From contig JBHLLP010000012.1 in NCBI GenBank assembly GCA_048885525.1, positions 5,721-69,720 on the forward strand: 64,000 bases of DNA, in the 5' to 3' direction. Positions 4,731-57,636 of the stretch are shown one piece after another; the stretch's first letter is position 1, and each line of letters opens with the position of its first letter. The notes below the pieces were generated by a model that ran no database searches, was not told the origin of the DNA, and was given only the letters and a program-made list of their open reading frames with translations. This DNA comes from Candidatus Hermodarchaeota archaeon (GTDB taxonomy: Archaea > Asgardarchaeota > Lokiarchaeia > Sigyniarchaeales > SOKP01). The position numbers and the translations under genes are program-made.

Positions 4731-5324
4731 TTAAAATGGTTTTTTAAATATTTTAGTTATCCTTTTTCGCGTCATATAAGCTGAGATCCCAATAATAGAC
4801 AAGAATATAATTATATGAGAATAACCTGGAATATCATTTGGTTGATATAAATCCCATGAAGTAAGTATTAAGGTACGTTGAGGATGGTCAGCTTCTACTA
4901 TGATTCCCGTGGCTATGTCAATAATTTCATATTCTTCGGGATTGATCATAAAGGTTTTACAGACTGTTATCAATCTCAATGCGTAAGTATGGTTGTATGT
5001 TCCATATATAGAACTCATTGTTGCTGTCCAAGTGTCATCATGAATAAAATCATTAGAAATTATCTGATTTGAATTAAAGGCTCCATTTACGTAATTATCT
5101 GCTCGAACTTCTGTTGTTGAGATGCTTGTTACATTAAAGCTATAATAATCTTTACTATCAATTCTAACTGTCCACTTAAACCCTATTGATATCCCTTTAT
5201 AATCCGCTGTTCTTAATCGAGAAAAAGTGTCTTCATATGATCGAATATTTCCAATATTGCTGAAAATACATAAAAAGATTATGATCGGGATTATATTAGG
5301 AAGAAATTTTCTGAGTTTTTTCAT
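4731..5324 (-). CDS. Hypothetical small surface protein (N-terminal signal/anchor, C-terminal TM anchor)
   Basis: 197 aa. N-terminal hydrophobic segment IIPIIIFLCIFSNIG and C-terminal HIIIFLSIIGISAYM followed by the basic tail TRKRITKIFKKPF. Confidence 0.5.
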   Translation of the reverse strand: MKKLRKFLPNIIPIIIFLCIFSNIGNIRSYEDTFSRLRTADYKGISIGFKWTVRIDSKDYYSFNVTSISTTEVRADNYVNGAFNSNQIISNDFIHDDTWTATMSSIYGTYNHTYALRLITVCKTFMINPEEYEIIDIATGIIVEADHPQRTLILTSWDLYQPNDIPGYSHIIIFLSIIGISAYMTRKRITKIFKKPF

Positions 5325-5578
5325 TTTAAATTACTTTCCACCTTTTTACTTTCTATTATTAACTAGATGGTCTTTAGATATATATTTAGATGTATATAAC
5401 TTCTATCGAACAATTTAAATAATGTCTAAATATTTCATTAGGTTAATAATTTATGAATTAAATTGCAAACAGAATTTAGCTCATAAATACTTCGATTTAA
5501 ATTGAAGTTAATGTACTTTTTTTTGAGCATTTCCATATCTGATTATGTTCTTTAGTTATAATTGCAATTTTTTTTTTA

Positions 5579-6028
5579 TTATAGATAAGGTAAAAATTTA
5601 TCTAGAGTTATTTTTGCCCCTATTTTCGATGGAATTTCAACTGCTTTCTTTACATCATTATAAGAATAACCCTTATTATATAAATTTTCTATTACTGGAG
5701 AGAAAACCTTTTTATAATATTTATCTCCAATTTTATTAATAATTTTATCGAATTCCTTGGTTGCTATCCATTTCTCTTGTTTTCTATGAGTAATTGATAC
5801 CCCTTTCTCCTTTCCTTTTTGTTCTAATTTATATTTCTGGGGTTCTTTTCCTAGCCGCGCTTGATATCCAACAATAGCAATCACAATTCCATGGATCTTT
5901 GCCTCTTCTTCATTATGTCCAGCTTTAAGCCAATCAATACGATGATATTCGGAGATTATATCCCATTTACCTATCTTAATTAATTTCATTTCTTCTATTT
6001 CTTTTGAGTTAAAGCCGTTAGGTATCAT
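5579..6028 (-). CDS. Hypothetical protein
   Basis: 149-aa ORF flanked by about 250-280 nt AT-rich spacers. Lys-rich, no recognisable motif. Confidence 0.4.
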   Translation of the reverse strand: MIPNGFNSKEIEEMKLIKIGKWDIISEYHRIDWLKAGHNEEEAKIHGIVIAIVGYQARLGKEPQKYKLEQKGKEKGVSITHRKQEKWIATKEFDKIINKIGDKYYKKVFSPVIENLYNKGYSYNDVKKAVEIPSKIGAKITLDKFLPYL

Positions 6029-6307
6029 GTAATTAGCTATAATTTTTACTGTACACTTTTAAAAATAAATAAGTAATTTGCTATTTTAATTCTTTTAGTT
6101 GTGTGTTAAAATAATATATATTATTTTAAGAATGAAGCGAGTAGTGATTAAGATTACTTAAAGAGTGCTGATGCAGATTCTCGGGAATTAGCCAAGAAAA
6201 TTAGGAATATTTTATAGTATAAGGTTTTTTTCAATCTTTTCTACTAATTTTGAAAAAAGTTAAATATATTTTTTATAGTTCTGAGCATCTTTTTCAAATT
6301 AATTCAT

Positions 6308-6979
6308 TTATTTCTTAAGAATTATTTTCATCCAACCATCAGTCAATATCAATTGGAATTTTTTATTAAATTTTGTGTGTTCAAGAAGCCTTTTAATTTT
6401 GGTATTGTATAATTTCCATGGAAAGCCATGTGCTTTCTGGATTTGGCTAACAATATGATATTTAAAAGATCCATATTGACGTTTTAATTTAAGAATTTCA
6501 TCCTTAGGGGGATTTGAGCATCCATCATAAATCCAAGCTTCGCTACCATGTTTTAACACACGATAACACTCATTGAAAACCTTGAGAGGGTGCTTCCAGT
6601 GATGAAATGAACCCGTGCTAGCGATAAAATCGACAGAATTGTTTTCAAAAGGAATATTTATAGCATTTGCTAATTTAAAATTTACATTTTTAAAACCTTT
6701 TGCATTACTCGTAGCAATTTCAACCATTTTTCTACTCAAATCAATCCCATAAATATTTAACTTAGGTGCTCTTTTTGCGATTTCTATTGATAAGAAACCG
6801 GTACCTGACCCTACATCAATAAGAATTCCTTTATCTATTTTTTGAACAATATCTTGGGCAATTCTTAATTCCGGTTTACTCAAAATTATTTTTACAAGAG
6901 CATTATAAAGAATTGCACCAGGGGTAGGGATTGCTTCAAATTTTACTTGGATATCTCTAATAATTTTTGCTAAACCCAT
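6308..6979 (-). CDS. Class I SAM-dependent methyltransferase
   Basis: 223 aa. Motif I LIDVGSGTGFLSIEIA, post-I acidic IYGIDLS, Methyltransf_11-like layout. Confidence 0.75.
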   Translation of the reverse strand: MGLAKIIRDIQVKFEAIPTPGAILYNALVKIILSKPELRIAQDIVQKIDKGILIDVGSGTGFLSIEIAKRAPKLNIYGIDLSRKMVEIATSNAKGFKNVNFKLANAINIPFENNSVDFIASTGSFHHWKHPLKVFNECYRVLKHGSEAWIYDGCSNPPKDEILKLKRQYGSFKYHIVSQIQKAHGFPWKLYNTKIKRLLEHTKFNKKFQLILTDGWMKIILKK

Positions 6980-7244
6980 TTGTGTATTCTCTTTTATGAT
7001 TATAATTATACTTTGAATTTTCTTTCGTCATATATCACATTTTCTCTTGAAATAATGATTTACTTCTGAAATAGTCTTTTTTGCATCTACTCTTTGTTTT
7101 CAATATTTCGATAAGTTATTCAAATATTTAAATATTGGAATTAGTCAACAAAATCAAGAGAAGATTAAAAAAAGATTATAACTAAAGAATAATTTATCAT
7201 CAATCTTGTTTATATTGATAAATCCCAAAATTAAATGAAAAATA

Positions 7245-7637
7245 ATGTCGAGCAATCAATCTGAAAATATTGAAGATATTGAAATTAAATCTATAAAAAA
7301 GGCTATTATGGATTATTACCATGAAGGGCATGTTAAGAGCGATCCAGAACTCTATAAAAAAATCTTGCATGATGAATGGAAGTTTTTTCTATTCAATGAG
7401 AATAATCAATTAAGAATAGTTGATAAAGAAGAGTATTTATCTTGGTATGATCCAGAAAAAGTGAATAAAGACTTAACTTGGACTACTGAGTTTTATAATA
7501 TTGATGTAACTGGGAATAATGCTGCTGTAAAATTAAGAATAGAATGTGAGGAAGTTGGATATATTGATTACTTTAACCTAATGAAAATTAACGATAAATG
7601 GTGGATCGTCCATAAAATTTCACATAAAATCAAATAA
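7245..7637 (+). CDS. NTF2-like / SnoaL-like (putative lumazine-binding) family protein
   Basis: 130 aa. IMDYYHEGHVKSDPELYKKILHDEW and C-terminal KWWIVHK pattern typical of small NTF2-fold proteins. Confidence 0.45.
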   Translation: MSSNQSENIEDIEIKSIKKAIMDYYHEGHVKSDPELYKKILHDEWKFFLFNENNQLRIVDKEEYLSWYDPEKVNKDLTWTTEFYNIDVTGNNAAVKLRIECEEVGYIDYFNLMKINDKWWIVHKISHKIK

Positions 7638-48614: not shown

Positions 48615-49838
48615 ATGATTAAGAATATAAATAAAGGGAATACTTTATTAGTTAAAGGTCCAGCAAGAATAACTTTACTAGAAGGAAAAGTAGATGTTAT
48701 TGGTAAGATATTTTCTCAGGATAAAAATATCCAGTCTGCTAATTCTACCGATAAAAATACATTAATTGTCCCTAGTGCCCAAGTTTATCCTCTATATGCC
48801 CTAGTTAAATCAAAGTTAGAAATTTATACTAATAATGAAGAAAATCTTAAAGAAATCCAAGAAAACACGATCTCCTCCAAGTGGAATGAAATTAAAGACT
48901 TGATAATAAACGAATTGAAAATAACTACAAATAAGCCTTTAAAAATAATGGTGTTAGGAATTAGTAGTGGAAAAACAACATTTATCAAATACTTAGCAAA
49001 TAACTTTCTTAAAGAAGGACTGAAGGGTGCATATTTAGATTCTGATTTAGGTCAACAAATTATATATATACCCACAACAATTAACATTGGTACAATTGAT
49101 GATTATATCATTTCAAGTGAGGATATTATATCTGAAAAAACCATTTTTATTGGTGCTACGTTCCCGAAAGGAGATAATAAATTTATTATCTCTCTTTCCT
49201 GTAAAGGTTTAGTCTCTGATTATGTTGCAAAATATAAAGATGTTGATTTTATTCTTATTGATACAGATGGCTGGATTAAGACTGAGGCAGGGATCATTTA
49301 TAAGAATTTTTTTATTAAAGTATTAGATCCAGATATCATAATTGTGTTTCACGATGAGACAATTGAAGAATTACTCGCTATAGAGAAGAGTTTCTCGAAT
49401 TTAAGAAAAGATAGAACAATGTATTTAATTAAGGAGAAAAATATATATTTTTATGAAAAAGATAAGGAAGAAAGAAGATTTTTACGCCAAAGTCAATTCT
49501 CTAAAAAATTTGAGGTGTTTAGGAAAATATCAATCCCTTTAAATGACACGAAATTTATAAAAACTGAATATGATAAAGAAAGAGATCAAATTATCGAAAA
49601 GAAAATTGATGTTAATGACCTTGTTACGCTTCCTTACCATTATGTAATAATAGGTTTAATGACTGAAGAATCAGATTTATTAGAAATAGGTCTCTTATTT
49701 ACAGTAAATATTGAAAAAAACTATATTTTATTATATTCAAACATTTCATATAAAGAACAACTAAAAGTAAAAAAGATATTGCTTGGAAGCTTAAGACTTA
49801 GCACGAAGGGTAACCATCAAGGATATCTATATCTTTAA
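48615..49838 (+). CDS. Clp1/Grc3-like polynucleotide 5'-kinase homolog
   Basis: 407 aa. N-terminal GNTLLVKGPARITLLEGKVDVIGKIF, P-loop VLGISSGKTT (first Gly position is Leu), YLDSDLGQQ, LIDTDGW. Confidence 0.6.
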   Translation: MIKNINKGNTLLVKGPARITLLEGKVDVIGKIFSQDKNIQSANSTDKNTLIVPSAQVYPLYALVKSKLEIYTNNEENLKEIQENTISSKWNEIKDLIINELKITTNKPLKIMVLGISSGKTTFIKYLANNFLKEGLKGAYLDSDLGQQIIYIPTTINIGTIDDYIISSEDIISEKTIFIGATFPKGDNKFIISLSCKGLVSDYVAKYKDVDFILIDTDGWIKTEAGIIYKNFFIKVLDPDIIIVFHDETIEELLAIEKSFSNLRKDRTMYLIKEKNIYFYEKDKEERRFLRQSQFSKKFEVFRKISIPLNDTKFIKTEYDKERDQIIEKKIDVNDLVTLPYHYVIIGLMTEESDLLEIGLLFTVNIEKNYILLYSNISYKEQLKVKKILLGSLRLSTKGNHQGYLYL

Positions 49839-49965
49839 TTTTTAATTTTTTCAATGAATCCCTTATTATTTCTTAATTTTGAAAAATCATGATATGAATC
49901 CCTTATTCAATTTTTACAAACATGGGATAAAATTTATTTAAATTATGATGTAATTATAATAAGTT

Positions 49966-51408
49966 ATGGACGAACTTCTCACAAAGTTTTTAAAATTGAT
50001 GTCCGCAAGAATTACAGATTCAGATTTAGAATTAATTAATTTAGGAAAATCTTTAGGATTAGATTTAGTATCTTTTGCCGATTTAAGAGCCTCACAAGAA
50101 GATATATTTGCTGATGAAGTAAGACAAAAAGCTTTAGAGATAATGGAAAAAAATAAGGATAATGTTTTAAGTACTTTAGATTCATTTTATGCTGGAAGTA
50201 TTGATTTTATGGTCTCAGATGAAGCCGAAGAGAAAAAGTTTTTTTTATTAGAAACTAATGGAGGATCTCATCGAGGACTTTCAATAATTACTGAAAAACA
50301 ACAAATTCTTCTATATGATGGATATTTAGAAGCTATTAAACAAGCAATTAAAAGAAAAGAGAATACTATAGATAATGTATTTGTAATAATTGGAGTACCA
50401 ATTAACGATGGATTAATTCATGAAAAAGTTATAATGATTGAATATTTCAGAAAAACACTTAAAGCTAATGGGTATTCTGTAAAAATTTTTAATACGGATA
50501 ATTACAATAAGGACTTTAAAGCTGAAATCATTGTTTTAATAGCTGATTATCAGCAACTATCCTCATCTCTTTCATTTTCTAATAATTGGATTAAATATAA
50601 AGGAGAGAACGTAGGAGTATTAATAGGAGATGGTATTACAAGACGTTTTAAGAATAAAAAATTTTCAAAATTAGTGAAAAAAGAGTTTCGAGAAATAAAA
50701 TCAATTTTAGTTAACCCTATATTTCATATAACAGATGATAAATCTCTAACATATTTAGCAAGCTATTTTAGTAAAGATCTCCTCAAAAAATATAATTTAA
50801 AATATCTTTTATTCACAAAAGCTTTTAATGAAAAGGATTTGATCGATAAATTAAAATATCTTATTAAGGAATATAAAAAATCTTTTATTATTAAACCTAG
50901 TGGGGGTTCTGGAGGAGCTGGCGTCATTCCCGTTTCTAAGGATGAAGATCCTCTTAATATTAAAAATATTGTTGAAGAAAGTAAAAAGGAATTTTTTGCT
51001 AAGTTCATGAAGTCGCGCGATCCTTTTCCATATACGATTCAAGAAATGGCCGATTTCTCATTAATAGAGTGGCAGGAAGGGAAACACACATTTGATTTAC
51101 GGATTTATTTAGCTCAAAGAGATGGTAAAGTTATCCCAATTGGAGGGTTAGCTAGAATTGCCCGAGAAGAATTTATTCATAAAAAAAGACTGAATAAGCA
51201 AGAATTTGTAGTCAATCTATCTGGCTACAATGGTCAAATTGAAGTTAAACGTGGAATAGGTTTCTCGGAAAAAAACTGTAAACTATTAAACTTAACAAAA
51301 GATGATTTTACAAATATGTTTTGCATAGGTTGTGTTTTATTTTCGGGAATGGTTAAAAATTATCATAAAATCATCAATTTTACAAATTGGGAAGAAATAT
51401 TCGATTGA
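49966..51408 (+). CDS. ATP-grasp-like amidoligase, apparently circularly permuted
   Basis: 480 aa. FFLLETNGGSHRG (E-x-N type) near residue 95. FIIKPSGGSGGAGV, YTIQEM, HTFDLRIYL, LARIA and VVNLSGYNG lie at about residues 305-410. Confidence 0.5.
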   Translation: MDELLTKFLKLMSARITDSDLELINLGKSLGLDLVSFADLRASQEDIFADEVRQKALEIMEKNKDNVLSTLDSFYAGSIDFMVSDEAEEKKFFLLETNGGSHRGLSIITEKQQILLYDGYLEAIKQAIKRKENTIDNVFVIIGVPINDGLIHEKVIMIEYFRKTLKANGYSVKIFNTDNYNKDFKAEIIVLIADYQQLSSSLSFSNNWIKYKGENVGVLIGDGITRRFKNKKFSKLVKKEFREIKSILVNPIFHITDDKSLTYLASYFSKDLLKKYNLKYLLFTKAFNEKDLIDKLKYLIKEYKKSFIIKPSGGSGGAGVIPVSKDEDPLNIKNIVEESKKEFFAKFMKSRDPFPYTIQEMADFSLIEWQEGKHTFDLRIYLAQRDGKVIPIGGLARIAREEFIHKKRLNKQEFVVNLSGYNGQIEVKRGIGFSEKNCKLLNLTKDDFTNMFCIGCVLFSGMVKNYHKIINFTNWEEIFD

Positions 51409-51409
51409 G

Positions 51410-52570
51410 ATGAATGCTGAAACCCTAAAATCATTATTAGATATTTCTAAACGTTACAATTTATATACAAAGATTCTGAAAGAATTAGATATTGTAAGAA
51501 ATTTAGAATATACCAGCTATCGAATTTATAATACTTCTGAAGGCATTATTCCTCTAATAAAAATTGCTAAAAATTCCAATTTTGATGAATTAAAACATAT
51601 TAAAATCTTTATTGGTGCACAGCAAAATGAATATAATGGTTTATTTAGTATCCTGAAATTTTTTAAATTAATACAAGATAATAAAATTCAAATCAATAAA
51701 TTAATCAGAGAAGATCAAGTTCTTTTCTTTTTGCCATTATTAAATCCTTATGGGTTTTTGAATCCTAGTAAAAATAATAAATCTGGTTATTATTTAAAAA
51801 ATGGTTCAAATCTTAATAGATTTTGGGTTAGAGCTTTCGTCCCTGAATATAAAAATGGGATTATAGATTTAGATACAATTAAAACACCCGAACAAGTTAT
51901 TATTGTGAAAGAATTACTTCAAAAATATTGGGATAACGAAGATATTCATATATACATACTCGATTTCCATGAGACTTCTTTATTGAATAGATTTCCAGTT
52001 GAATTAAGTACAAATCTAAATCCCTTTTATAAATTTGATCATTGGTTAAAAGAGGGTATTATACTAAATATTATTAAGCTATACGATATCCCTTATTATC
52101 GAAAACCTTTATTCTTTAAATGTAATCCTTCCGCCGATCACACGCATCTAAATTTAACTTATAAACAAATTGAGACCGTTCATGAAAAACTTTATGACTA
52201 TATATCAAGGAATTTGGGGATGGGCAAATTACCTTTCTATTTTTGCTACAGCGACAAGAGTAGAGATTTCTGTCTAAAACTTGCAAATAAAGTTTATAAT
52301 AAACTGAAAGACAAATTATGGGAAACTTACTTTCCTGCTTTTGATCATAGTTTTAAAAATCATGGTTGTTTTGTAAGAATGAGTGATGCGACATCTCGAG
52401 CTAGAGTTTATAGCATGGAATTAGAATCTCAAAAACATTTCTTCAACATCTTTGAAGAAATAAAAAAATTAAAATCAGTTCCTAATTACATTGAAAATAA
52501 ACTTGATCTCATTAATGTGAGTATTGAATTAGCACTTGAGACTATAAAGGAGATGATAGAATTATTTTAA
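51410..52570 (+). CDS. M14 zinc-carboxypeptidase-like protein with variant metal site
   Basis: 386 aa from ATG 51410, 1 nt after the upstream stop. The track TTG start 51332 overlaps the upstream gene. IGAQQNEYNG sits where HxxE is expected. LLNPYGF, GSNLNRFW, ILDFHETS. Confidence 0.5.
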   Translation: MNAETLKSLLDISKRYNLYTKILKELDIVRNLEYTSYRIYNTSEGIIPLIKIAKNSNFDELKHIKIFIGAQQNEYNGLFSILKFFKLIQDNKIQINKLIREDQVLFFLPLLNPYGFLNPSKNNKSGYYLKNGSNLNRFWVRAFVPEYKNGIIDLDTIKTPEQVIIVKELLQKYWDNEDIHIYILDFHETSLLNRFPVELSTNLNPFYKFDHWLKEGIILNIIKLYDIPYYRKPLFFKCNPSADHTHLNLTYKQIETVHEKLYDYISRNLGMGKLPFYFCYSDKSRDFCLKLANKVYNKLKDKLWETYFPAFDHSFKNHGCFVRMSDATSRARVYSMELESQKHFFNIFEEIKKLKSVPNYIENKLDLINVSIELALETIKEMIELF

Positions 52571-53565
52571 TTGTTTATAAAACTGAGAATTGCCCCAACT
52601 AAAATACATTCATTTTTTTTATTTGAATGACCACCTTTTTTTAATATTAGTATATTCTTCGCTGGTGATTCTAAAATTAGTTTATTTTCTATTAAATTTT
52701 TGAATTTTGTTACTTTATCGTTTTTACAATGGATTAGCATAACTTTTTTAGATAATTCTTTCCATTCTTCTGATGTTAGTTCCTTTTTAGCATTTTTTAT
52801 CAATAAATAAGGAGATAATTGACTATTCTCTTCCAAAGTTGGAAATAATTTCACCCCCTTAAATAAATAATTTAGGATAACAACTGGATTGTATTTTGGA
52901 ATGTTTTCTTTATAATGTGATATAGAAGCAATTGCAATAATTTTCTCAACATCTATATTCATAAAACCTCCTGATAAAACGGTAATAGCACCTATACTAA
53001 AACCAATACAAAAAATCTTCTTATTTGAAAATTTTTCTTGATTTTTTACCCATTGAATTATTTTTTTAAAATCTTCAATTCTTTGTAAAAAATCGCTTCT
53101 CCTTCCTGTTTTTTTTGATTTTCCCGTACCTCTTGCATCATAAGCTAAAATAATATAACCTTGATAAGCAATTGGAAAATATAAATATTGAAGTCTTTCT
53201 TTTGTGTCAGAAAAACCATGACAAATTATAATTACTGCATTTTTTGAATCAATTTTAGCTTGCTCCCTACTTTTTACTAGATTTACCGATAAAAATCCAT
53301 CAGAGACATTAATTTGTAAATTTAAGACTTGCAAATCCTTGAGAAAAAGCTTTCTCCACCGATCGAACCAGAGATCTCGAAAAGACCAATAAATTTCGAA
53401 TGGTGTGTAGACAATTAAAAAAGTTGTTAAAGATAAGATAAAACACTGTGAGAAAGCCGTTGTATAACAAGGATTTCCTAATGAAATATTGACCTGCCAA
53501 ATATACCAGCTAAATAAAATATCAATAAAAATTAAAATTATACGTTTTAGAGTATTTCTTATCAC
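52567..53565 (-). CDS. Membrane-anchored alpha/beta hydrolase
   Basis: 332 aa. Two N-terminal TM helices, ICHGFSD, nucleophile elbow GFSIGA, IHCKNDK. Confidence 0.65.
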   Translation of the reverse strand: MIRNTLKRIILIFIDILFSWYIWQVNISLGNPCYTTAFSQCFILSLTTFLIVYTPFEIYWSFRDLWFDRWRKLFLKDLQVLNLQINVSDGFLSVNLVKSREQAKIDSKNAVIIICHGFSDTKERLQYLYFPIAYQGYIILAYDARGTGKSKKTGRRSDFLQRIEDFKKIIQWVKNQEKFSNKKIFCIGFSIGAITVLSGGFMNIDVEKIIAIASISHYKENIPKYNPVVILNYLFKGVKLFPTLEENSQLSPYLLIKNAKKELTSEEWKELSKKVMLIHCKNDKVTKFKNLIENKLILESPAKNILILKKGGHSNKKNECILVGAILSFINN

Positions 53566-53706: not shown

Positions 53707-54036
53707 TTATTTTTTAGCTTTATCTGGAGGACATCCGAAATCATCCCTTACTTTACAATTTCTTTTGCTAGAACTGCCTGGGCATGGAGCACATTTAACT
53801 TTTCGCATAAGAGCTTCAACTTCATCTATCTCATAACCAAAAGATTCCTCCTCTGTCTCATCTACTAGCATATCATCCTTAATTTTACTCAGATCATAAT
53901 CTATATCTTCTTCTAGATTATCTTTCCAATCTTCCAAATCTAAAATCTCATCCCCATCTTCATCAATTTTTCCTGATGGAAGTTCTAAATCTTCATCCTC
54001 AACAGGAGCACTCTTTTTTTTAGCCATGTTATTCAC
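53707..54036 (-). CDS. Highly acidic small protein with basic four-Cys C-terminal tail
   Basis: 109 aa, 33 D/E by my count. The tail is KVKCAPCPGSSSKRNCKVRDDFGCPPDKAKK. Confidence 0.5.
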   Translation of the reverse strand: MNNMAKKKSAPVEDEDLELPSGKIDEDGDEILDLEDWKDNLEEDIDYDLSKIKDDMLVDETEEESFGYEIDEVEALMRKVKCAPCPGSSSKRNCKVRDDFGCPPDKAKK

Positions 54037-54182: not shown

Positions 54183-56273
54183 CTAGGATACATCTTTAAT
54201 ATAGATCTGATTAATTTGATCCAAGAGAGGTTCATTCTTGTATATAATGTTGAATATGTTCTTAATTTCATCTAAAGTAGGCTCCAGCTCTTCTATTAAG
54301 TACGTTTCATAATTATCAATCTTATATCGCGGTATGAGGTACTTAAATTGAATGTTTTTCAGTTCTATTTTCGAGTATAAGAATTCTCTTATAAAACTGA
54401 AATCAATATTAGATTCTAAATATAACTCATCTAAATATATTAGTTTTACTAAGGAATTACATAATTTTATAAAAAATCGTAATAATCTTTTAAGTTCCAG
54501 TTGATATTTTTGATTTAGAAATTTTAGATCTAGAGTTCTATAGATAAATTTTGAACTTAGATCATAATGCAATTGAGATAAAATTTGAATAATTTTTCCA
54601 CAATTGGATAATGATAAAGGAAGATTTTTTGGTATTGGCAATCTTCTTATAAAACTTCCATTGAATCTTAAATAGCCACCGGCCATGTGAAGAGAACTAA
54701 ATAATGTTTTAAATACAGTATCTAATAGTGTTGAGTTCAATAATGCTAAGAGACAATATAACTGCTGAGTATTTATCGAAGGGATCCTCATTAAATATAA
54801 ACCAGTTATATTAGCAAAGATTCCAGGGTCATACACACAGGTTAATTCTTTGGCAATTTCTCTAAAAATAATTTTTTCATTTTTTAGGTCCTGCCAAATA
54901 GGATTAAAAGTAGGATTATAATTAAAATAACAGATTTCAAGATCTCTCTTAGCTATCTTTATCCTTTTATTAAATTTAAGATAATATTTGTCGACATTTC
55001 CTGTCCCAATTAATAGTAAATCAAGATCAGATTGGGGTTCATCGCTGATATTATCAAAATATTTGCCATATTTTAAAAAACCAAAAGGGCGATATATAAT
55101 TTTCAAATCTTTGAAAGTTTCAGATAACGTTTTAAAGTTTCTAAACAAGTATGAAATTATGTTAATATTTCCTGAGATCGGTATTACTTTTGACGGGAAT
55201 ATATTGATTAGATTTTGATTGAATTTTATTATCTTTATACTATTATTTTCATTTAACTCATTTAGGTTATTAAAAGCTTTAACATTCACCTCATGTTCCT
55301 TTTTTTGCTTAACCTTTTTTAGCGATAAAATAATTGGATATGTAGCTACATTTTGAAATATAGATATCGACGATATATTTATGATTTCTTTAATTTCTGA
55401 TTTATTTAATATTAACTCTCTAATTTTGATACCATAATCAGCAGATAAGAATTTATTAGGTAAAATGAATGAAAGATATCCATTACTTTCTAATAATTCT
55501 AACGCTCTCTCAATAAAGAGGATTGAAAGATCAAATAAACGATAGGCTGTTTTATATCTTTTAGTTAAATTGTTCTTGAATTCAATTGGTTTTATCTTTT
55601 TATTTTCTACATAAGGAGGATTTCCAATTATTATATCGAATTTATCAGAATTAAACTCTAAAAGAAAATCTAAATTAAAAAGATTAAAACTTAGATTTAA
55701 GAGCTCAATGATTTGGTTAAAATTTGTGATTTTTATGTTTTTAAAATTATCATTTTGAAATGTAAAGTTATTGTTATCTGTTATTAAAAGCCATTTAATT
55801 AATCGCAGTTTTGAGATAAGAATACCTGATTTTTCAATTTCAATTCCATACAGATTTTTTTCAATTATTAATTTCTTTATATCAAAATCAGATAATTTTG
55901 GCTCTAACATTCTATAAATATAATACAATTTTTCAGCTATAGATACTAAAAATCTCCCAGAGCCACAAGAAGGGTCTAGAATCCTTATATTTTTAATTAT
56001 TTTAATTAAATTCTCTTTAGTTTTTAGATTTTTAATTAGTGTATGAATAACTTCTTCTAAATCCGATCCATTTTTAATTTCTTTATTAAAAGAAACAAAT
56101 TTTTCGAAATAGATTCTAAAGATCTTAGTTACTATATAATCTACAACTTGGTTCGGTGTATAGATTATTCCAAGATTCCGACTCTTATCCTTTTCGAGAA
56201 ATTTTTCATTTTCAAATCTCTCAATTCGTTTCTCAATATTATTTAATAATTTTTTAACTACTGATCCTTCCAT
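54183..56273 (-). CDS. Eco57I/TaqI-like gamma-class N6-adenine DNA methyltransferase with target-recognition domain; no nuclease domain recognised
   Basis: 696 aa. GIIYTPNQVVDYIV, motif I ILDPSCGSGRFL, motif IV IIGNPPYV, TaqI_C-like LALLNSTLLD...GGYLRF...LPIP. Confidence 0.75.
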   Translation of the reverse strand: MEGSVVKKLLNNIEKRIERFENEKFLEKDKSRNLGIIYTPNQVVDYIVTKIFRIYFEKFVSFNKEIKNGSDLEEVIHTLIKNLKTKENLIKIIKNIRILDPSCGSGRFLVSIAEKLYYIYRMLEPKLSDFDIKKLIIEKNLYGIEIEKSGILISKLRLIKWLLITDNNNFTFQNDNFKNIKITNFNQIIELLNLSFNLFNLDFLLEFNSDKFDIIIGNPPYVENKKIKPIEFKNNLTKRYKTAYRLFDLSILFIERALELLESNGYLSFILPNKFLSADYGIKIRELILNKSEIKEIINISSISIFQNVATYPIILSLKKVKQKKEHEVNVKAFNNLNELNENNSIKIIKFNQNLINIFPSKVIPISGNINIISYLFRNFKTLSETFKDLKIIYRPFGFLKYGKYFDNISDEPQSDLDLLLIGTGNVDKYYLKFNKRIKIAKRDLEICYFNYNPTFNPIWQDLKNEKIIFREIAKELTCVYDPGIFANITGLYLMRIPSINTQQLYCLLALLNSTLLDTVFKTLFSSLHMAGGYLRFNGSFIRRLPIPKNLPLSLSNCGKIIQILSQLHYDLSSKFIYRTLDLKFLNQKYQLELKRLLRFFIKLCNSLVKLIYLDELYLESNIDFSFIREFLYSKIELKNIQFKYLIPRYKIDNYETYLIEELEPTLDEIKNIFNIIYKNEPLLDQINQIYIKDVS

Positions 56274-56384: not shown

Positions 56385-57290
56385 TTGAATTTTGTAGACA
56401 ATTCAGCTTTATATGAATTAATAAATAACCCACAGAAAATCTCTGCACTAAAATTTGATATTATTTTAAATATCATAAAGACATTTAAATGTATTTTAGA
56501 AAAAGAAAATTTACTCTTGGAGGTTAATTTTAAAGAAAAAAAGGAAGAAGCTTATGTAATAGGGGATATACATGGAAATTTGGAGACTTTAACAAAATTG
56601 ATTGAAATAATTAACCATAAAAATCCAAAAATCATCATTTTTTTAGGAGACATTGTCGATCGTGGACCAAAACAATTTGAATGCTTAATGATAGTCTTAA
56701 TTTTAAAGATTCTTCACCCATCAAAATATTATTTATTAAGAGGAAATCATGAAACATTAGAAATGAATGAATATTACGGTTTCTTTCAGGATTTTATTTC
56801 AAGATTTAAAAATCAGAGCAAATTCAATGAAATTTTGAGTATTTATAATCTAATACCGATATGTGCATTAATTAATAAAGCAATATTATGTTTGCATGGA
56901 GGGATTCCAGAGGATTTTGACATTTTAAAAAAATTGCAAGGTCAAAGATGCATGAACTTTAAAGAAGTTTTCAATTTAAATATGCAAGGGATTTATCAAA
57001 TTATGTGGAATGATCCTAAATCTGGATTAGAAGGATTTTCAGACAGTTTTAGAGGTCCAGGAATTAAATTTTTTGGATATGATGTTTTTGAAAATTTTAT
57101 GAAATATAACAATCTTAAATACATAATTAGATCACATGAATGTTTTTCTGAAGGATATCGATGGTTTTTTAACAAAAGATTATTATCTATATTTTCATCC
57201 GCAAATTATCGAGGATTTTATAGTCCAAATCCCGCATCTTATGCAATAATAAGAAATAATGAAATAGTTCCAAAATTATTGGTTTTATAA
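56385..57290 (+). CDS. PPP-family Ser/Thr protein phosphatase (PP1/PP2A-like)
   Basis: 301 aa, TTG start. GDIHG, GDIVDRG, RGNHE, LHGG, RSHE. Confidence 0.85.
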   Translation: MNFVDNSALYELINNPQKISALKFDIILNIIKTFKCILEKENLLLEVNFKEKKEEAYVIGDIHGNLETLTKLIEIINHKNPKIIIFLGDIVDRGPKQFECLMIVLILKILHPSKYYLLRGNHETLEMNEYYGFFQDFISRFKNQSKFNEILSIYNLIPICALINKAILCLHGGIPEDFDILKKLQGQRCMNFKEVFNLNMQGIYQIMWNDPKSGLEGFSDSFRGPGIKFFGYDVFENFMKYNNLKYIIRSHECFSEGYRWFFNKRLLSIFSSANYRGFYSPNPASYAIIRNNEIVPKLLVL

Positions 57291-57372: not shown

Positions 57373-57636
57373 TTAAGTAATTTGAGAAGCATCTGGCTTA
57401 ATAAATAAGAGATTATTACCTCGAATAAATATCTCGTTGTATTTAGCCACAGGAGTTCCTTCTAATAACTCCGTAGCCTCTTCAAGAATCATATTCATGT
57501 ATGCATCTATTTCCTTTAATAATCCTCTATATTCAGTTCCATCTTTTAATCTGAGAAGTATAGTTGAACCTTGCGCATTCTGGAGTATTGTTAACGGATT
57601 CTTTGACCTTTGCTGAGTATTATTTTTATTTGACAT
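57373..57636 (-). CDS. Sm-like archaeal protein (LSm/SmAP)
   Basis: 87 aa. Sm1 ILLRLKDGTEYRGLLKEIDAYMNMILEEA and Sm2 IFIRGNNLLFI. Confidence 0.85.
   Translation of the reverse strand: MSNKNNTQQRSKNPLTILQNAQGSTILLRLKDGTEYRGLLKEIDAYMNMILEEATELLEGTPVAKYNEIFIRGNNLLFIKPDASQIT

Follow-up and report, generated by a model that had tools for sequence, protein, structure and literature searches.

The window analysed here is a 64,000-nucleotide stretch of contig JBHLLP010000012.1, assigned to Candidatus Hermodarchaeota archaeon, with a G+C content of 24-36%. Two adjacent genes on its forward strand, designated A and B, encode a predicted ATP-grasp ligase with circularly permuted motif order and a divergent homologue of the M14 metallocarboxypeptidases (Table 1). 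The original prediction, made from the nucleotide sequence alone, gave the products as 480 and 386 amino acids encoded one nucleotide apart in a genome rich in eukaryote-like proteins. The list of open reading frames (ORFs) and the junction sequence bear out its coordinates, lengths and spacing, and the source is an Asgard metagenome-assembled genome (MAG).

The short motifs on which the prediction was built are all present. In A, FFLLETNGGSHRG occupies residues 92-104 and FIIKPSGGSGGAGV residues 307-320, followed by YTIQEM (356-361), HTFDLRIYL (374-382), LARIA (395-399) and VVNLSGYNG (415-423). In B, IGAQQNEYNG lies at 68-77, LLNPYGF at 110-116, GSNLNRFW at 132-139 and ILDFHETS at 183-190. 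Because their key residues are invariant across the A and B homologues, these motifs are not chance occurrences. The 480-residue start of A is favoured over the 469-residue NCBI call because residues 1-11 are conserved. The 386-residue form of B agrees with the lengths of its homologues; a longer ORF beginning at GTG 51332 is a mechanical extension only.

Table 1. Positions in the window of genes A and B, their predicted functional segments and the flanking features. CPA, bovine carboxypeptidase A; AF2, AlphaFold2; GS, glutathione synthetase.
Feature	Coordinates	Strand	Description and basis
Gene A	49966..51408	+	480 aa; predicted ATP-grasp carboxylate-amine ligase, circularly permuted (eukaryotic GS / GspS-type) order; ORF, AF2, Foldseek
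N-terminal beta-hairpin, A residues 77-104	50194..50277	+	GSID80FMV...FFLLE96TN98GGS101HR103G; predicted Mg2+/substrate floor of the active site; model strands 77-85, 90-99
Rossmann-like pre-ATP-grasp region, A residues 138-264	50377..50757	+	alternating strand/helix in the model; presumed acceptor-substrate site
Phosphate-binding Lys and Gly-rich lid loop, A residues 307-320	50884..50925	+	FIIK310PSGGSGGAGV; invariant
ATP-grasp core, A residues 356-423	51031..51234	+	YTIQ359E360 hinge, D377-x-R379, R397, N417...G420; invariant
Junction TGA-g-ATG	51406..51412	+	A stop 51406-51408, one base, B ATG 51410; read GAT TGA g ATG AAT
Gene B	51410..52570	+	386 aa; divergent M14/AstE-AspA-clan metallohydrolase homologue; AF2, Foldseek, family profile
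HxxE-site motif, B residues 69-77	51614..51640	+	G-A-Q71-Q72-N-E74-Y-N-G; codon 72 = 51623-51625, CAA
Putative carboxylate anchor, B residues 109-139	51734..51826	+	PLLN112PYGF...K124...N136-R137-FW; corresponds to CPA N112-P-D-G, R124, N144-R145 (C-terminal carboxylate anchor); hhalign
Putative third zinc-ligand His, B residues 183-191	51956..51982	+	ILD185-F-H187-E188-T-S-L; CPA H196; MAFFT with CPA and M14 proteins
Predicted general-base Glu, B residues 335-342	52412..52435	+	YSMELE339SQK342; CPA E270 equivalent; E339, K342 invariant
AT-rich spacer 5' of A, 127 nt	49839..49965	+	TATA-like TTTATTTAAAT, two TGAATCCCTTATT copies; sequence
Clp1/Grc3-type P-loop polynucleotide kinase	48615..49838	+	PF16575 1.8e-26; upstream neighbour in the main branch only
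Alpha/beta hydrolase (S33/S15-like)	52567..53565	-	PF12146 1.9e-18; convergent; 3' end overlaps the B stop by 4 nt

Fold and motif order of protein A

The structure of A was modelled with AlphaFold2 from an alignment of 78 homologues, giving a predicted local distance difference test score (pLDDT) of 83 and a predicted TM-score (pTM) of 0.86. When the model was compared with the PDB by Foldseek, the top match was human glutathione synthetase (GS; E 3.9e-12), followed by the yeast, plant and nematode enzymes, the JCSG structures 3k1t and 3n6x, and E. coli YjfC and YgiC, with the best matches spanning 371-487 columns. The human, yeast and plant GS structures, 3k1t and 3n6x were matched at E 3.9e-12 to 7e-9 over 413-487 aligned columns, YjfC at 4e-8 and YgiC at 1e-6. 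Canonical ATP-grasp enzymes gave far weaker matches, from 6e-5 to 5e-3 (Ddl, 6e-5; E. coli GshB, 2e-3; TTLL6, 2.9e-3 at rank 44). Thus the full-length model fits permuted members of the superfamily better than canonical ones. Every one of the 38 matches at E<=1e-3 is an ATP-grasp protein except NisB, in keeping with the ATP-grasp fold of pre-ATP-grasp, lid and kinase-like domains. Judged by its predicted fold, A is an ATP-grasp enzyme with permuted order. The CDC123/R2K clade of ATP-grasp proteins, which is linked to translation factors, was also considered for A and was rejected as it is absent from the structural matches.

The order of the motifs agrees with the structural ranking. In A the E96-x-N98 hairpin precedes both the pre-ATP-grasp domain and the K310 loop. 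Human GS has the same order, with RSD127YMF...IE144IN146TIS149 before FVLK364PQREGGG, whereas E. coli GshB has the opposite one, K160 coming before LD273II...E281IN283 (both sequences were validated against the PDB). The hairpin of A matches D127...E144-x-N146-x-x-S149 of human GS in motif and in spacing, the distance from Asp to Glu being 17 in GS and 16 in A. Eukaryotic GS is reportedly the classic permuted ATP-grasp enzyme. The K310 loop pairs with FVLK364PQREGGG of human GS in hhalign and with IILK160PLDGMGG of E. coli GshB in local alignment (z 5.3). According to the GS literature, the N-terminal hairpin forms the floor of the nucleotide pocket and is the source of Mg ligands.

Conservation of A was examined in 24 sequences from the main and distant branches of the family, the latter described below. 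D80, E96, N98, S101, K310, G313-G319, Q359, E360, D377, R379, R397 and N417 are invariant, and within the hairpin so are G99, G100, R103 and G104. In residues 138-264 the invariant positions are D148, E153, K154, D222-G223, R226-R227, N250 and D257-D258-K259. The motifs expected of the superfamily are all present, and both branches keep them: the phosphate-binding K310 with its Gly-rich loop, the adenine hinge Q359-E360, D377-x-R379 and the Mg-binding E96-x-N98. In the literature an ExR/DxR motif, here D377-x-R379, distinguishes those ATP-grasp ligases that form peptide bonds. Residues 12-44 are also conserved and are modelled with low confidence.

Curated profiles give a partial picture. ATP-grasp families of Pfam were matched in a truncated pattern, all inside residues 268-402, and every match fell below its gathering cut-off. 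The best was YheC/D (PF14398), with 24.8 bits against a cut-off of 26.8, aligning residues 280-402 to profile positions 28-151 of 255. In 78/78 family members the canonical Pfam ATP-grasp alignment stops near position 151 of 255, and some relatives carry a precomputed PF14398 match. CP_ATPgrasp_2 (PF14403) was matched with 16 bits against a cut-off of 32, at profile positions 280-374 of 374; this C-terminal end of the profile was matched by 20/78 members (best E 3.4e-4). Membership of A in a permuted profile family was not found (PF14403, PF04174, PF03917, PF03738), and the Pfam scan of the window protein and the 78 members gave no match at all to PF03917, PF03199, PF04174, PF03738 or CP_ATPgrasp_1. 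Nothing useful came from an NCBIfam scan of A, and a profile search with the A family against PDB sequences returned only noise.

Sequence comparisons aimed at the permutation itself were negative. Moving residues 33-130 or 63-130 to the C-terminus neither raised a Pfam ATP-grasp score nor lengthened an alignment, and the N-terminal fragment alone, from the window A and one distant homologue, matched no Pfam family at E<=10. The family hidden Markov model (HMM) recovered only the K-loop of E. coli GshB and human GS, and hhalign of the A family with human GS gave a probability of 0.3%. In Smith-Waterman comparisons, residues 70-112 scored no higher than shuffled sequences against either GshB (z -0.6) or human GS (z 1.6), and a hairpin-only HMM found no match. 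The permuted ATP-grasp architecture that had been predicted for A is nevertheless supported by its model, by how that model ranks in Foldseek and by the order of the motifs. The further proposal that the later motifs of A resemble RimK or tubulin tyrosine ligase (TTL) was not borne out: its nearest structures are eukaryotic GS, 3k1t/3n6x and YjfC/YgiC, with TTLL6 at E 2.9e-3, and the Pfam TTL and RimK profiles match 4/78 (best E 4.9e-4) and 1/78 members, respectively.

An M14-like partner with an altered metal motif

The AlphaFold2 model of B, built from 79 homologues, has a pLDDT of 92.8 and a pTM of 0.92. Foldseek matched it to M14 carboxypeptidases at probability 1.0, the best being 3l2n (E 3.7e-7). 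Other matches include Francisella REP34, carboxypeptidases A1/A2/A4, T, D, N and M, the bacterial structure 4b6z, which resembles cytosolic carboxypeptidases (CCPs), and the AstE/AspA-type 3fmc. Of 94 PDB matches at E<=1e-3, the best 50 are M14, M14-like or AstE/AspA-type proteins. The predicted fold of B is that of M14, although TM-scores against M14 structures reach only ~0.45-0.5 and B has an additional C-terminal helical region.

At the level of sequence B is remote from its superfamily. Pfam and NCBIfam scans of the window B gave nothing at E<=1, and hence nothing above the gathering cut-off of PF00246 (Peptidase_M14); a search of PDB sequences with the B family profile was empty at E<=10. 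The same profile reaches three strong PF00246 proteins, which provide a sequence bridge to M14. One relative 57% identical to B (P0214) scores 26.5 with PF00246 against a cut-off of 21.6, and 16/79 members match that profile at E<=0.1. AstE_AspA_cat (PF24827) is matched by 13/79 members (best E 1.6e-4), the window B not being among them.

Active-site positions were assigned by hhalign and MAFFT alignment with a validated reference, bovine carboxypeptidase A (CPA). The equivalences are G69=G67, E74=E72, K124=R124, N136-R137=N144-R145, H187=H196 and E339=E270. E74, H187 and E339 would accordingly be the second-ligand Glu, the third-ligand His and the general base, and N136-R137 with K124 align by hhalign to the residues of CPA that anchor the C-terminal carboxylate. 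E339 also aligns with the Glu of ...LVE/TLE... in the PF00246 proteins P0273 and P0275. Q71, N73, E74, N136, R137, H187, E188 and E339 are invariant among relatives down to 22-28% identity, as are G69, K124 and the N112 region. The predicted M14-like nature of B is upheld by the model and the structural matches, together with equivalents of E72, H196, N144/R145 and the catalytic Glu.

The first zinc ligand is the exception, as the window B has Gln at both candidate positions, Q71 and Q72. A His-to-Gln change at this ligand had been predicted, and for the window copy it is literally true; the family as a whole retains a nearly invariant His at position 72. About 135/137 B relatives read G-A-Q-H-N-E-[YF]-N-G. 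QQNE occurs only in the window B and its identical database copy, and QYNE in one other sequence. Codon 72 specifies His in the 81 related loci examined (CAT in 64, CAC in 17) and Gln in the window, and Q72 is the sole deviation of the window B among 98 columns conserved at >=95%. The all-Gln motif is a one-off of one MAG; its CAA codon could be a recent real mutation or an error in the MAG consensus.

The register of the family motif depends on the alignment. MAFFT, anchored on the flanking Gly and Glu, places Q71 at the canonical His (CPA H69) and E74 at E72, leaving H72 at +1. HMMER, anchored on Q-H, places H72 on the canonical His, which implies a one-residue deletion and an H-x-E dyad. 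A His-x-Glu pair at i, i+2 is able to bind metal. Because the His beside the Gln is nearly invariant, the family probably keeps a His ligand, as far as can be read from sequence. N73-E74 also match the N-E of HGNE, a motif of the AstE/AspA deacylases.

Coupling and genomic context of the pair

Gene order was compared in genome and metagenome loci combined, counting for each feature only the loci in which it could be tested. A lies immediately upstream of B in 125/126 loci, with spacers of 1-28 nt, and all these loci are labelled as Asgard or unclassified archaeal MAGs. The tight co-location expected of relatives is thus confirmed. In the genome set, each of the 78 loci with a B relative belongs to a MAG that carries the label Promethearchaeota, Promethearchaeia, another Asgard phylum or unclassified uncultured archaeon. 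The cultured MK-D1 and L. ossiferum do not appear in this set, though the pattern scan behind it may have overlooked them. The divergent phylum labels among them (Hod-, Thor-, Hermod- and Odinarchaeota; L004-L081) are probably unreliable, because their A and B proteins are 50-80% identical to Promethearchaeota-labelled ones and have the same gene order. A search of 1.84 billion clustered proteins detected 36 representatives of B at E<=1e-3, which makes the family a small one, and every labelled member is from an Asgard MAG.

In the main branch the pair has conserved neighbours on both sides, the convergent alpha/beta hydrolase 3' of B in 111/116 loci and the Clp1-type kinase 5' of A in 87/92. 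A distant branch, from MAGs labelled Promethearchaeota or Lokiarchaeota, encodes proteins ~40% (A') and 26-28% (B') identical to those of the window. There A' and B' are still adjacent, with a 19-22-nt spacer, and every other neighbour has changed, the kinase and the alpha/beta hydrolase both being absent. At three of these loci the pair lies between rpS7/aEF1-alpha and rpS10 (L153, 4584-7143; L154, 4587-7146; L155, 4587-7137), following rpS7 and aEF1-alpha directly, and is thus inserted into the conserved translation-factor cluster. At a fourth (L078, 1013-6703) it follows, on the same strand, a 405-residue gene, a pyruvoyl-dependent arginine decarboxylase and deoxyhypusine synthase; this single locus hints at a connection with polyamines or aIF5A. 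Of these distant-branch neighbours, the 64-kb window contains neither arginine decarboxylase nor deoxyhypusine synthase, EF1-alpha or rpS7, and no relationship was detectable between its Metallophos gene and that near the distant pair. Because A'-B' persists among different neighbours, none of which is in the window, the pair itself is the conserved unit.

Other features were noted in the distant contexts. A ThiF/ubiquitin-like E1 gene lies 5' of the pairs in the translation-factor cluster, and in L155 Metallophos, HD and 402-residue genes separate the pair from rpS10. Beside the pair in L153 (7147-10594, reverse strand), a lysine-2,3-aminomutase-like radical S-adenosylmethionine gene lies between two Ddl-like ATP-grasp genes, which may represent a beta-lysine peptide pathway.

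The spacer upstream of A is likely the pair's own promoter, to judge from its composition. Two exact copies of TGAATCCCTTATT (49855-49867 and 49895-49907) lie 40 nt apart upstream of the TATA-like TTTATTTAAAT, and three matches occur in the window where 0.38 are expected. The repeat was dropped as a conserved element since it is not kept in related loci.

Beyond the pair, the N-terminal region of the alpha/beta hydrolase is hydrophobic, suggesting membrane anchoring. Downstream of it in nearly all main-branch loci is a 109-residue protein that is very acidic, ends in a Cys-rich tail (CAPCPG...C...C) and matches no Pfam family (53707-54036, reverse strand; 57-88% identity). A 696-residue homologue of MmeI/Eco57I-like N6-adenine methyltransferases (54183-56273, reverse strand) keeps its place in the gene order of relatives of 41-69% identity, a stability not usual among restriction-modification genes and one that points to a housekeeping methyltransferase. 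A homologue of PPP-type calcineurin-like protein phosphatases (56385-57290, forward strand; GDIHG/GDIVDRG/GNHE) is followed by an LSm gene (57373-57636, reverse strand), both eukaryote-like and conserved in the neighbourhood.

A possible ligase-hydrolase module, its alternatives and known systems

From the folds, motif order, residue conservation and gene coupling we infer catalysis, a shared substrate and a direction of coupling as follows. A and B would constitute a two-gene module, specific to Lokiarchaeia-type Asgard archaea, with a common amide-linked substrate. In A, ATP-Mg2+ would have the lid (K310, loop G313-G319, hinge Q359/E360) on one side and the floor hairpin of the N-terminal part (D80, E96, N98) on the other. 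Phosphorylation of a carboxylate of the substrate would give an acyl-phosphate, and attack by an amine would then form a peptide-like bond. In B, E74 and H187 would hold a metal together with a first ligand, Q71 or else the neighbouring H72. A free carboxylate of the substrate would be anchored by N136/R137 (and K124) while E339 activates metal-bound water, and the amide beside that carboxylate would be hydrolysed. The residue that an amino-acid-adding ligase leaves at the end of its product has its alpha-carboxylate free and is exactly what such a hydrolase takes off, so that B would most likely reverse, trim or recycle the product of A. We lean slightly toward this reading, in which both proteins act on one amide-linked substrate. 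Regarding the nature of that substrate, a small peptide or metabolite is reasonably favoured, and a protein terminus is the less favoured but credible choice.

Several points weigh against this reading. Sequence-level proof of the permutation of A failed, and the claim rests on the AlphaFold2 model with its Foldseek ranking, together with the order of the motifs. Since the first zinc-ligand position is not His, the chemistry of B may differ from that of M14 peptidases, and the QQNE copy in the window is possibly impaired. Opposing activities that are co-expressed would constitute a futile cycle unless regulated. The adjacency count is largely not independent, because most of the loci are close relatives. 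Finally, two loci show that each gene can persist without its partner. In L083, B' is intact (511-1707) and is not preceded by A', of which a frameshifted remnant of ~150 residues lies at 5120-5577. In L079, from the Loki_b32 MAG, A is intact, whereas B (6001-7256) matches over its first ~68 residues only, is directly followed by the alpha/beta hydrolase and appears deleted or truncated. An M20 peptidase gene separates the A' remnant of L083 from B', the remnant lying 3.5 kb away on the opposite strand.

A sequential pathway would avoid the futile cycle. Here B would trim or deacylate a precursor for A, or free the finished product from a carrier as in the LysX/LysK/LysW system, where LysK, an M20 peptidase, releases lysine after LysX, an ATP-grasp ligase of RimK type, has loaded the LysW carrier. 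The gene coupling (125/126 loci, 1-nt spacer) and active-site residues conserved as in working hydrolases fit such a pathway too, and the literature commonly links ATP-grasp ligases with peptidases and other ligases in metabolite pathways. We nevertheless consider it unlikely, as the surroundings of the pair in its three genomic contexts share neither a carrier protein nor any other gene of a pathway, and the LysX and LysK families differ from A and B. Alternatively, B might be a pseudoenzyme, a non-catalytic subunit that binds a substrate or partner and, joined to A in a stoichiometric complex, provides specificity or regulation. Gln at the canonical first-ligand position throughout the family, the tolerance of Q or Y at position 72 by a few members, the window copy among them, and a 1-nt stop/start spacing suited to equimolar co-translation are consistent with this role, and the conserved, poorly modelled residues 12-44 of A could mark a docking segment. 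Retention of E74, H187, E339, N136/R137 and the nearly invariant H72 across 22-28% identity is, however, the constraint typical of catalysis, and an i, i+2 His-x-Glu pair can bind metal, making a non-catalytic B rather improbable.

Inherited synteny could also account for the adjacency, with A and B serving unrelated processes. Most of the 126 loci are 50-80% identical relatives whose common gene order extends all the way from Clp1 to the Metallophos gene, and L083 and L079 retain one gene without the other. Yet the distant branch keeps A' and B' together where all else has changed, and spacers of 1-28 nt imply co-transcription, so that we hold mere inheritance very improbable. Membership of A in an RNA-repair or RNA-processing set with the Clp1-type kinase, for example as a nucleic-acid-end ligase, is scarcely credible. 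The kinase is upstream in most main-branch loci, Mut7-C RNase and LSm genes are nearby, and sets of kinase, phosphoesterase and ATP-grasp RNA ligase are known from the literature. Against this, the fold of A is that of amidoligases with a pre-ATP-grasp domain, not of Rnl-type nucleotidyltransferases, Clp1 is missing from all distant-branch contexts, and the 127-nt spacer between Clp1 and A has its own TATA-like element.

Within the reading of an opposed ligase and hydrolase, the modified molecule might be a protein of the translation apparatus, to which an amino acid or polyamine would be reversibly ligated by a GS-type permuted ligase with a QHxE carboxypeptidase, in a prokaryotic counterpart, in logic, of RimK or TTL/CCP. 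This version draws on the distant-branch context only, namely rpS7/aEF1-alpha and rpS10 at three loci and deoxyhypusine synthase with arginine decarboxylase at one, and seems distinctly improbable. If the writing and erasing of one amide bond is borne out, it would define a new metabolite or a new protein modification in the archaeal lineage closest to eukaryotes. Should the function turn out to be mundane, ~400 proteins now labelled hypothetical would still gain names, maps of their active sites and a pairing open to test.

Both superfamilies, the permutation and ligase-peptidase pairings were already known. What is new are two Asgard-MAG families, neither with a curated profile, that they are strictly paired, and a variant form of the M14 metal site, G-x-Q-H-x-E. 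Among known enzymes, eukaryotic GS (human 2HGS/8FBZ, yeast 1M0W, plant hGSH synthetase 3KAL) is closest to A in structure. It was the top match over 413-460 columns, is of similar length (474 versus 480 residues), and likewise has the D...E-x-N-x-x-S hairpin in its N-terminal third and the K-P-x-x-G-G-G lid loop in its C-terminal third. In contrast to A, it has no partner peptidase, and no sequence homology between them is detectable beyond the K-loop. Of the substrate residues of human GS (R125, S149/S151, E214/N216, R267, R450), only S149 has a proposable equivalent, S101, by motif spacing; the others cannot be aligned. A review reports no archaeal GshB-type enzyme. On the present model, A is an archaeal addition to the permuted ATP-grasp group that contains eukaryotic GS. 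The bacterial circularly permuted proteins of the CP_ATPgrasp_2/CP_ATPgrasp_1 type, 3k1t and 3n6x, are similar to A as well; in Foldseek no structure exceeds the TM-score of 3k1t (0.45), and rmsd is lowest with 3n6x. Transglutaminase, Alpha-E, M20 and GAT-II are said to be partners of these families, and they were not found beside A.

The pairing itself has analogues. The nearest in logic among the structural neighbours of A are the synthetase-amidases for glutathionylspermidine (GspS) and trypanothione (TryS), in which a synthetase is reportedly paired with a hydrolase of opposite activity, as is proposed here for A and B. Their hydrolase is a fused cysteine amidase, whereas B is a separate M14-type protein. 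A polyamine link rests here on one locus, L078. Two structural matches of A, YgiC and YjfC, have been described as peptide-spermidine ligases. TTL/TTLL enzymes with CCPs, and RimK, resemble the pair in logic, a ligase adding C-terminal or side-chain amino acids and an M14 enzyme removing them. The cycle of reversible amino-acid addition and removal that had been predicted for the pair is plausible, but this parallel is an analogy only; TTL and RimK are unpermuted, and no link of A or B to tubulin or S6 was found. B, for its part, shares with M14 enzymes (CPA, 3l2n/4b6z, REP34) and AstE/AspA a common fold and equivalents of E72, R124, N144-R145, H196 and the catalytic Glu. It differs in the metal motif, which is G-x-H-x-x-E in M14, G-x-Q-H-x-E in the B family and G-x-Q-Q-x-E in the window copy. 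The family motif thus offers a natural test of how strict the geometry of the M14 zinc site is.

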